NCBI RefSeq assembly: GCF_056712565.1
Contig: NZ_CM160072.1
Length of the DNA: 64,000 nt
Reading direction: 5' to 3' (one strand)
A model generated the notes under the pieces. The model had not been told where the DNA came from. It searched no databases and saw nothing but the letters and a program-made list of their open reading frames with translations. Positions 60,120-60,602 of the stretch are shown piece by piece. Position numbers and translations under genes: made by a program. Position 1 is the first letter of the stretch, and each line of letters starts with the position of its first letter.

Positions 60120-60602
60120 CTATCTGGTCAAAGTGTCGTACTGTTTTTCGCAGACTCTTCCGGCTTCGGCTGCCCGGTCAGCATACTCTGCCAGTTGTCT
60201 GTTTCTCTCGAGAGATTTGCTGAGCACGTCGGCAAGCAAAACTCCGGTGTCTGCGGCTGACGACCCAGCGCCGACAATGGCGTTATACTGCCTGAGCTGC
60301 TCACGGATGGCAAAGAGTTGTTGCTGCAACCGGCCAGCGCTAGCGGCAGCATCAAGAGCATCATTGCGCGCCTGGTCGATCCTCTGCTGAGCTTCACGTT
60401 CATTGGTCACTTTCTCCTGTTCGTAGTACTGACGAACTTTGTCTTCTTCGGCTTTGCGGTCTTCTTCCGCCTGAGCATACCCGGCATCGTACTGGCGACT
60501 GCCGTGTATATTCCAGGCAACCACTCCTGATATGACCAGAACAGCAAGCACTGCCACGATAAGCAACTGTTTCCAGTATGCTTTCACGAATGCCTTGATC
60601 AT
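60120..60602 (-). CDS. Phage i-spanin (Rz-like): N-terminal transmembrane anchor plus periplasmic coiled-coil
   Basis: 160-aa ORF with 'LLIVAVLAVLVISGVVAW' anchor and Ala/Gln/Arg/Glu-rich helical region; contains an embedded lipoprotein ORF; GAAGGTAAG RBS. Confidence 0.8.
   Translation of the reverse strand: MIKAFVKAYWKQLLIVAVLAVLVISGVVAWNIHGSRQYDAGYAQAEEDRKAEEDKVRQYYEQEKVTNEREAQQRIDQARNDALDAAASAGRLQQQLFAIREQLRQYNAIVGAGSSAADTGVLLADVLSKSLERNRQLAEYADRAAEAGRVCEKQYDTLTR
60128..60403 (-). CDS. Phage o-spanin (Rz1-like) lipoprotein, embedded out of frame within the i-spanin gene
   Basis: 91-aa ORF in a different frame with lipobox 'LALAGCS' after a positively charged n-region; exact start (60403 or an internal Met near 60364) uncertain. 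Confidence 0.6.
   Translation of the reverse strand: MNVKLSRGSTRRAMMLLMLPLALAGCSNNSLPSVSSSGSITPLSALGRQPQTPEFCLPTCSANLSRETDNWQSMLTGQPKPEESAKNSTTL

Follow-up and report, generated by a model that had tools for sequence, protein, structure and literature searches.

A predicted embedded spanin gene pair of an epsilon15-like prophage in Escherichia coli K1

The edge of a prophage in Escherichia coli K1 carries one open reading frame lying wholly inside another, which raises the question of whether the two encode a two-component spanin or whether the inner frame is open merely by chance. We analyzed the locus within a stretch of 64,000 nucleotides, hereafter the window, and took the definition of an embedded two-component spanin from Summer 2007 and Kongari et al. 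2018. A preliminary description had read the locus as an Rz/Rz1-like pair, that is, an i-spanin gene with a lipoprotein gene (the candidate o-spanin) in its +1 frame, and both frames were recovered at exactly the coordinates it had given. That reading is sustained by matches to spanin families, by the equivalent pairs of the phages epsilon15 and phiV10, by a curated spanin family and by conservation of the inner frame and its lipobox. The pair at 60120..60602 (minus strand) is very probably the embedded two-component spanin of an epsilon15-like (Uetakevirus) prophage, its function being predicted from architecture and homology.

Architecture of the two overlapping genes

The outer gene, which occupies 60120..60602 on the minus strand, encodes a 160-aa protein with an N-terminal transmembrane anchor, a long periplasmic helix, a short linker and a second helix bearing a near-invariant cysteine, Cys151. 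It matched Pfam DUF2514 over its full length (4.9e-44) and PHROG 312, "Rz-like spanin" (6.7e-59). The best 19-aa hydropathy window covers residues 14-32 (60507..60563, minus strand; LIVAVLAVLVISGVVAWNI) and is strongly hydrophobic, with a mean Kyte-Doolittle value of 2.63; K3, K7 and K11 precede it on the cytoplasmic side. This single N-terminal segment, as in a type II inner-membrane protein, lies inside the first helix (residues 10-107) of an AlphaFold2 model with a mean pLDDT of 91, in which a linker (108-114, IVGAGSS) leads to a second helix (115-159), giving the periplasmic domain two helices and a linker. Heptad a/d positions were hydrophobic in 59-62% of cases, as against 35-42% overall. 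Hydropathy, modeled helices and heptad enrichment thus agree with the transmembrane anchor and coiled coil previously proposed for this protein. C151 was retained in at least 90% of 61 diverse homologues.

Several matching database records carry the name "endopeptidase" or "endopeptidase Rz", under which the 160-aa protein would cleave peptidoglycan-lipoprotein links rather than act as a membrane-fusion spanin. Neither Pfam nor NCBIfam revealed a peptidase domain in it, however, the AlphaFold2 model is an all-helical rod lacking a globular catalytic fold, and a profile search of the PDB returned only weak, non-significant matches of coiled-coil type. An endopeptidase is therefore a highly improbable reading. 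The label dates from early Rz studies; the spanin model has since superseded it, and the way in which Kongari et al. 2018 (PMC6139136) describe spanin function is consistent with that replacement.

The inner gene (60128..60403, minus strand) lies in the +1 frame of the i-spanin gene and is wholly contained in it, running from 0.41 to 0.98 of the i-spanin length (L) and ending 8 nt inside the larger gene; Kongari et al. 2018 (PMC6139136) describe such a layout as typical of embedded pairs. Its 91-aa precursor matched PHROG 11621, "Rz-like spanin", over its full length (1.6e-40). The lipobox L-A-G-C (CTG GCC GGT TGC) lies at 60326..60337 on the minus strand, and the segment LLMLPLALAGC conforms to the PROSITE PS00013-type rule, with the cysteine at position 26, a Lys or Arg within the first seven residues and an n-region charge of +4. 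The signal-peptidase II site suspected at LALAGC in the embedded frame is thus predicted by rule as well, with Cys26 as the putative lipidated first mature residue. The residue at +2 is Ser, not Asp, which corresponds to an outer-membrane sorting signal with no inner-membrane retention signal. A signal peptide of 26 aa had been proposed; the signal peptide itself stands, and its length is 25 aa with Cys26 opening the mature protein, a trivial difference. The mature part comprises 66 aa, seven of them Pro (10.6%), in keeping with the earlier wording "moderately proline-rich". By contrast, the suggestion that the o-spanin is unusually long was not borne out: the mature o-spanins of its family relatives measure 57-80 aa, and its length is normal.

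A Shine-Dalgarno-like AGGAG (60414..60418, minus strand) precedes the o-spanin ATG by 10 nt and lies within the reading frame of the i-spanin. Both products contain periplasmic cysteine, C151 in the i-spanin and C56 and C60, within a CLPTCS motif, in the o-spanin. At least one periplasmic cysteine for homotypic disulfide linkage is present in 507 of 528 spanin systems (Kongari et al. 2018, PMC6139136).

Conservation of the embedded reading frame

Could the +1 frame be open by chance, its lipobox fortuitous and the 160-aa protein the only product? Ala, Gln, Glu and Arg abound in the i-spanin, and their codons rarely give rise to stops in the +1 frame. When the i-spanin gene was shuffled among synonymous codons, a +1 ORF of at least 91 codons starting with ATG arose in 3943 of 20,000 shuffles (20%), and a loose signal-plus-lipobox pattern in 869 of 20,000. 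ORF length was consequently dropped as evidence for the gene. PGAP, moreover, makes no call for it. Single-sequence statistics are therefore weak here, and since an open +1 frame is not significant alone, the case for the embedded gene rests on comparative evidence, which is strong and decisive.

The 91-codon ORF, its start codon and LAGC were kept in all 81 close homologues (57 distinct DNA sequences), and LAGC was unchanged in all 38 distinct o-spanin sequences among them. The internal AGGAG persisted in 56 of 57 unique homologous gene sequences, with a variable spacer. In the i-spanin gene, 56% of third positions varied upstream of the overlap but just 26% within it. Within i-spanin codons 116-127, third positions were invariant even where the i-spanin residue and the first codon position varied, which argues for selection on the +1 frame; at codons 138-155 the pattern returned to that of ordinary single-frame coding. 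Codon-position entropies accordingly point to purifying selection on both frames.

The comparison was extended to 15 other DUF2514 genes, 30-88% identical, from hosts that include Burkholderia, Klebsiella, Pectobacterium, Shigella and Salmonella and that differ in GC content; it drew on 12 annotated phage loci taken individually. A lipoprotein ORF in the +1 frame was found in 13 of the 15, and these 13 ORFs share a core, ...QP.TP.[FI]CLPTCS.NLS.E.D.WQ, together with three Cys. The scan of these distant genes did not pick up a lipoprotein ORF in eiAU, and in HBM00 the annotated "spanin" is the o-spanin frame itself. Conservation of the embedded ORF and of its lipobox in homologous i-spanin genes, on which the preliminary description had staked its reading, thus holds among close and distant relatives alike. 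Persistence across all close homologues and across very different hosts with different GC content, invariant third positions, a conserved internal AGGAG and full-length similarity to the annotated o-spanins of a PHROG family together speak against a chance frame, which is almost certainly the wrong explanation.

RefSeq/PGAP leaves the embedded o-spanin gene out of the E. coli genome annotation, a known gene-caller bias, 196 of 528 o-spanins being absent from annotation (Kongari et al. 2018, PMC6139136). In hundreds of E. coli lysogens the i-spanin is named only "DUF2514 domain-containing protein", and the practical value of identifying the pair lies in the annotation of these lysogens.

Relation to known spanin systems

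The closest counterparts are found in two phages. In the Salmonella phage epsilon15, which belongs to the same genus, Uetakevirus, they are the Rz-like protein AAO06089.1 and the Rz1 protein ABK13675.2; in the E. coli phage phiV10 they are p30 and p30a (AAZ95921.1 and AAZ95950.1), annotated as lysis accessory and putative rz1-like. In both phages the two genes measure 483 and 276 nt, exactly as here, their stops are likewise 8 nt apart, and the gene order is shared, with a holin-like gene, a holin, a GH19 endolysin and Rz with embedded Rz1, followed by attP and int. The i-spanin is 86-88% identical to those of epsilon15 and phiV10 (epsilon15, 86%), and residues 1-89 of the o-spanin are 87.6% identical to the annotated Rz1 region of epsilon15. 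The prophage differs from both in having a K1 endosialidase tailspike in place of their tail proteins and an extra 74-aa gene between endolysin and i-spanin.

Epsilon15 and phiV10 are listed in the "Bcep176" families of embedded i- and o-spanins, alongside Bcep176, BcepC6B, KS9, eiAU-183, SPN1S, TL-2011b and others (Kongari et al. 2018, PMC6139136). Comparison with these curated families, as had been proposed for the locus, placed the pair in the "Bcep176" family, both proteins being significantly similar to its DUF2514/PHROG 312 and PHROG 11621 members. Shared features are a DUF2514-type i-spanin with a C-terminal LADVL...AEYAD...AG..CE..YD block and a single Cys, and, in the +1 frame within its gene, an o-spanin that has the CLPTCS motif along with two periplasmic Cys. 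In this family the inner gene spans from about 0.4 L to about 0.98 L of the i-spanin, as here, and there is no difference of substance. The i-spanin of Bcep176 itself matched (7e-6) with 49% identity over residues 90-159 only, the N-terminal halves having diverged. The gene pair is thus already known, and because the same pair is annotated in epsilon15 and phiV10 and placed in a curated family, the finding is correct but ordinary. The pair itself leaves little room for novelty, and the discovery value of its re-identification is small.

The relation to lambda Rz/Rz1, the prototype of embedded spanins, is one of design. In both systems the i-spanin is a type II inner-membrane protein whose periplasmic part consists of two helical segments joined by a linker, the o-spanin is an outer-membrane lipoprotein read entirely from the +1 frame, periplasmic Cys are available for intermolecular disulfides, and the two genes come last in the lysis cassette. 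The mature o-spanin, on the other hand, has 66 aa with 10.6% Pro, as against 40 aa with 10 Pro in lambda Rz1, and periplasmic Cys number one in the i-spanin and two in the o-spanin, as against two and one in lambda. Neither protein matched the Pfam models of lambda Rz (Phage_lysis) or Rz1 at E<=0.01, which places the pair outside that family, and the Lambda and Bcep176 families are listed separately by Kongari et al. 2018 (PMC6139136). The term "Rz/Rz1-like" is accordingly valid as a description of architecture and mechanism but implies no homology in sequence to lambda Rz/Rz1.

An o-spanin with two periplasmic Cys is also found in the PseT.3/PseT.2 system of T4, and such o-spanins form the commonest class, with 240 of 526 systems (Kongari et al. 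2018, Table 9, PMC6139136). Both Cys of the T4 o-spanin are essential and are thought to isomerize from an intramolecular to an intermolecular disulfide. The T4 genes, however, are separate rather than embedded, the T4 i-spanin is without periplasmic Cys, and the sequences are unrelated to those of the pair.

By extension from established work on the lambda and T4 spanins, the pair may be expected to act as follows. The 160-aa product would be anchored in the inner membrane by its one N-terminal helix, with its two-helix domain of coiled-coil type reaching into the periplasm. Translation of the 91-aa product would begin at the internal AGGAG/ATG in the +1 frame; signal peptidase II would cleave its precursor at LAG|C, and the lipidated product, which has Ser at +2 in place of Asp, would for that reason be destined for the outer membrane. 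As in lambda Rz/Rz1, the two proteins would bind each other across the periplasm through their C-terminal portions, and homotypic disulfides through C151 of the i-spanin and C56/C60 of the o-spanin would presumably stabilize the complex. A T4-like isomerization of the CLPTC pair from intra- to intermolecular disulfide, instead of the lambda route, is a lesser possibility. Once the holins had permeabilized the inner membrane and the GH19 endolysin had degraded the peptidoglycan, the freed complex would collapse and fuse inner and outer membranes, thereby completing lysis.

Prophage junction and lysis cassette

The prophage is a Uetakevirus (epsilon15-like) with a K1 endosialidase tailspike, integrated at the 3' end of guaA. 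The P22-like CUS-3, another candidate for a K1 endosialidase prophage, was ruled out, since the lysis cassette, the arrangement of attP and int and the best matches among phages are all epsilon15-like. The att core was defined from the phage attP and the empty host site: when the window junction was aligned with the attP of phage ZX5 and with the empty guaA/yfgI site of NU14, the three had a core of 17 bp in common (AATCATTCCCACTCAAT), at 59993..60009. This core comprises the last four codons and the stop of guaA on the minus strand and forms the prophage/host junction, host identity stopping at 60009 in thousands of non-lysogens. A search for the core as a repeat within the window returned chance 11-mers only, the other att copy being located past the end of the window. 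A distance of 110 bp separates the core from the i-spanin stop at 60120, in agreement with the distance of about 110 bp to attR given earlier, and the junction alignment likewise substantiates the view that no further phage gene lies between the spanin genes and the att core. In the lysogen, the nearest terminator on their downstream side is in host DNA, a bidirectional hairpin at 59943..59970 (minus strand) in the yfgI/guaA intergenic region, detected by a terminator scan. For this K1-specific Uetakevirus prophage, the junction analysis thereby pins integration to the 3' end of guaA.

The spanin pair closes a lysis cassette whose genes share the minus strand, overlap at their stops and starts and follow the order Holin_8, Holin_3_7, GH19 endolysin, 74-aa ORF and spanins. 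A second putative holin or membrane protein is encoded at 61731..62135 (minus strand; Pfam Phage_holin_8, 9e-12; PHROG 198 holin, 7.4e-41) and the holin at 61436..61744 (minus strand; Pfam Phage_holin_3_7, 5.1e-27; PHROG 217 holin). The chitinase-like GH19 endolysin at 60820..61446 (minus strand) was recognized by Pfam Glyco_hydro_19, PHROG 181 endolysin (2e-90) and the RefSeq annotation.

The window covers only the terminal ~4 kb of the prophage, and a cassette intact in sequence could in principle belong to a cryptic, non-inducible remnant whose spanins never act in the host strain. We consider this unlikely. Every lysis ORF is intact, the region shares 99% identity with the isolated phage vB_EcoP_ZX5 and 99.8-99.9% with a prophage arranged in much the same way in APEC E18055, and the tailspike ORF is open to the window end; a remnant would in any case bear on activity in the host strain and not on the identity of the genes. 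An apparent truncation of the endosialidase, with an ORF start at TTG 63845, was rejected as a listing artefact at the end of the window: the frame continues without a stop up to position 64000, with three substitutions relative to a 1039-aa homologue.

The hypothetical 74-aa gene (60599..60823, minus strand) lies between the endolysin and i-spanin genes and is tied to each by an ATGA stop/start overlap. Its product falls in phrog_2241, of unknown function, and its AlphaFold2 model is of low confidence (pLDDT 54); NCBIfam held no model for any of the three small proteins. The gene is a rare insertion in this cassette: it occurs in 7 of 5426 complete E. coli genomes, and 80 related viral contigs all lacked it. 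Its ATGA coupling, rarity and constant position allow the tentative and rather doubtful suggestion that it is an unrecognized accessory lysis component or regulates the cassette, for instance by modulating the endolysin or the activation of the spanins. Wherever the gene occurs, it lies between a GH19 endolysin and a spanin gene, including, in Enterobacter lambdoid prophages, upstream of an unrelated spanin family.

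Architecture of the nested spanin genes

The preliminary description had placed two open reading frames at 60120..60602 and 60128..60403, and ORF listing returned identical coordinates, both on the minus strand. The outer gene (60120..60602, -) encodes a 160-aa i-spanin; the 91-aa o-spanin ORF (60128..60403, -) lies wholly within it in the +1 frame, with its stop 8 nt ahead of the i-spanin stop. The embedded gene spans 0.41 to 0.98 of i-spanin length, the interval reported for approximately 70% of embedded spanins (PMC6139136).

The i-spanin N-terminus carries three lysines followed by strongly hydrophobic residues 14–32 (mean Kyte-Doolittle hydropathy, 2.63). 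An AlphaFold2 model built from an alignment of 61 diverse homologues (mean pLDDT 91) displayed a long helix (residues 10–107), a short linker (108–114, IVGAGSS) and a second helix (115–159). Hydrophobic residues occupied 59–62% of heptad a/d positions, compared with 35–42% overall. The predicted succession of membrane anchor, first helix, linker and second helix is that of a classic i-spanin. DUF2514 (Pfam) matched the full length of the protein (4.9e-44), PHROG 312 'Rz-like spanin' matched at 6.7e-59, and C151 was near-invariant.

The o-spanin precursor begins with MNVKLSRGSTRRAMMLLMLPLALAG followed by CS and fits the PROSITE-type prokaryotic lipoprotein rule, with Cys26, a basic residue among the first seven and an n-region net charge of +4. 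The signal peptide therefore comprises 25 residues, with Cys at position 26, rather than the 26 residues initially proposed; Ser occupies position +2, so that an inner-membrane retention signal is lacking. The mature protein has 66 residues, of which seven are prolines (10.6%) and 30% are Ser or Thr; besides Cys26, it contains cysteines C56 and C60. The o-spanin had been called unusually long, a view that did not hold: mature relatives have 57–80 residues, so 66 is normal for the Bcep176/DUF2514 family. An AGGAG motif lies 10 nt 5' of the internal ATG. PHROG 11621 'Rz-like spanin' matched the o-spanin over its full length (1.6e-40); the local Pfam copy searched contained no model for it, and a newer family, PF28595, is listed for its homologues in precomputed protein-database annotations.

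Selection on the embedded reading frame

To weigh chance as the origin of the embedded ORF, synonymous codons of the i-spanin gene were permuted in 20000 shuffles that kept protein and codon usage. Of these, 3943/20000 produced an ATG-ORF of 91 or more codons in the +1 frame, and 869/20000 showed a loose pattern of signal plus lipobox. Long +1 ORFs are common in the shuffles because the Ala/Gln/Glu/Arg-rich i-spanin yields few +1 stops. On the single sequence alone, the embedded ORF is barely more than chance, and the case for an o-spanin gene therefore rests on comparison.

The comparative case is strong. The close-homologue set consisted of 80 viral contigs with i-spanins 88–99% identical, plus the window (81 in total; 57 distinct gene sequences). 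All 81 kept the 91-codon +1 ORF with the same start, the same LAGC lipobox and both internal cysteines. The internal AGGAG was present in 56 of the 57 distinct sequences, with a variable AGGAG-ATG spacer. Third codon positions of the i-spanin gene were variable at 26% of sites within the overlap, compared with 56% upstream of it. A distant set of 15 other DUF2514 genes, 30–88% identical, was drawn from phages of Burkholderia, Klebsiella, Pectobacterium, Shigella, Salmonella and Enterobacter and from one bat-faeces siphovirus. A +1-frame lipoprotein ORF was found in 13 of these 15, several of which had been independently annotated as Rz1 or o-spanin. The mature part of the distant proteins shares the core ...QP.TP.(F/I)CLPTCS.NLS.E.D.WQ..., with three cysteines. 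The lipobox and embedded ORF pointed out in the preliminary description are conserved well beyond the window.

A codon alignment of twelve diverse i-spanin genes was used for codon-level entropy analysis. In codons 116–127, third positions were invariant even where the residue and the first position varied; at residues 116 and 119, amino-acid entropies were 1.55–1.73 bits and third-position entropy was 0. This pattern is the signature of +1-frame selection. In codons 138–155, the invariant residues A138, A141, D142, A147, C151 and Y155 had freely varying third positions, as expected of an ordinary single-frame pattern, and the o-spanin tail opposite them was not conserved. Purifying selection therefore acts on both frames, and the regions that it marks in them are complementary. 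The o-spanin core and the LADVL block at the beginning of the second i-spanin helix, both conserved, overlap.

Family membership and proposed mechanism

The homologous pair is annotated as 'putative Rz-like protein' and 'Rz1' in epsilon15, and as 'putative lysis accessory protein' and 'putative rz1-like protein' in phiV10, where a signal peptidase II site is noted. Both pairs have the same gene lengths (483 and 276 nt) and 8-nt stop offset as the window pair. The curated embedded i-spanin and o-spanin tables of PMC6139136 include a 15-member 'Bcep176' family containing epsilon15, phiV10, TL-2011b, SPN1S and others. Judged by sequence, the pair falls squarely within the Bcep176/DUF2514 family of embedded spanins and is nearly identical to genes annotated previously. 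The preliminary observation is confirmed, and its interpretation as an embedded spanin is supported by the PHROG families, the annotated epsilon15 and phiV10 pairs and the Bcep176 family. In its mode of action the pair would resemble lambda Rz/Rz1, but by sequence it does not belong to those families: it had no Pfam match to them, and the lambda and Bcep176 families are listed separately (PMC6139136).

RefSeq lysogen records annotated by PGAP (L001 and L002, E. coli chromosomes) list the i-spanin only as a 'DUF2514 domain-containing protein' and have no entry for the embedded o-spanin. This gene-caller bias is already documented, with 196/528 o-spanins unannotated (PMC6139136), and the practical value of the pair is limited to this annotation point. 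In several phage records, this i-spanin is called an 'endopeptidase', 'lysin' or 'tail protein'; the CDS labelled 'Rz-like spanin' in Klebsiella phage HBM00 is actually the o-spanin frame, extended too far at its N-terminus.

The present analysis demonstrates the structures of the two genes, their topology signals, selection on both frames, the families to which they belong and their place in the lysis cassette; the mechanistic steps are inferred from what is established for lambda and T4, as summed up in PMC6139136. By analogy, the i-spanin would insert in the inner membrane (N-in/C-out), and the o-spanin would be lipidated at Cys26 and Lol-sorted to the outer membrane. Their C-terminal regions would bind across the periplasm, and disulfides may lock homodimers, with i-spanin C151 and o-spanin C56/C60 as candidates. 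Once holins and the GH19 endolysin had removed the peptidoglycan mesh, the spanin complexes would collapse and fuse both membranes.

Lysis cassette and prophage edge

Upstream of the spanins lie genes for a 134-aa Phage_holin_8 protein (61731..62135, -), a 102-aa Phage_holin_3_7 holin (61436..61744, -) and the GH19 endolysin (60820..61446, -). The first two, both encoding membrane proteins, are consecutive and overlapping; holin, antiholin and second holin are candidate roles for them, and epsilon15 annotates the first only as 'hypothetical, three TM domains'. Upstream of the lysis genes, the endosialidase tailspike gene (62442..64000, -) runs past the window end; its listing as a 467-aa 'TTG' ORF was rejected as an edge artefact. 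The tailspike, a K1 capsule depolymerase, comprises beta-propeller, tail-spike and S74 chaperone domains and differs at three residues from its 1039-aa homologue in APEC E18055; the phage backbone that carries it is epsilon15-like (Uetakevirus). DNA identity was 99% to the isolated phage vB_EcoP_ZX5 (ZX5) and 81–95% to other Uetakevirus members, including phiV10, TL-2011b and VB_ST_E15; the spanin region was 88.5% identical to epsilon15.

A 74-aa ORF (60599..60823, -) directly upstream of the i-spanin gene is joined to it and to the endolysin gene by ATGA stop/start overlaps. Its product has two conserved cysteines, belongs to PHROG 2241 (family of unknown function), has no match in Pfam or NCBIfam, and gave a low-confidence AF2 model (pLDDT 54). 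The ORF is absent from ZX5, epsilon15, phiV10 and 80/80 related viral contigs, and occurs in only 7/5426 complete E. coli genomes. Salmonella, Cronobacter and Enterobacter have homologues with 61–88% identity, and in every context read, Salmonella and Enterobacter prophages included, the gene lies between a GH19 endolysin gene upstream and a spanin gene downstream. The spanin pair next to it in Enterobacter lambdoid prophages is unrelated and of overlapped type: locus L100 encodes a 92-aa i-spanin that has a TM segment and a 60-aa o-spanin whose lipobox is LIASC.

Identity of non-lysogenic E. coli to the window, a stretch comprising yfgI and the guaA 3' end, stops at 60009. Aligning the window junction with the attP region of ZX5 and with strain NU14, in which the site is empty, defined a 17-bp common att core, AATCATTCCCACTCAAT (59993..60009), which on the minus strand forms the last four guaA codons and the stop; the prophage integration site is the guaA 3' end. 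The i-spanin stop (60120) is exactly 110 bp from this core, in agreement with the approximate distance first given. The order in epsilon15, phiV10 and ZX5 is Rz/Rz1, attP, int, so that after integration no phage gene follows the spanins at the int-distal end; this gene order and the core position bear out the earlier statement that they come last before host DNA. By lambda convention, the int-distal prophage end is attR; the second att copy and int lie outside the window.

In the lysogen, transcription past the spanin genes would first meet the bidirectional host yfgI/guaA terminator hairpin CCCTCTGTAGTAACAGAGGG (59943..59970). In the ZX5 attP locus (L006 2828..2909), a hairpin, CCCTCTGTAAAAACAGAGGG, adjoins the core and closely resembles the host terminator across it. 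After integration, guaA would be followed by this attP hairpin at the far junction, outside the window, and would therefore keep a similar terminator.
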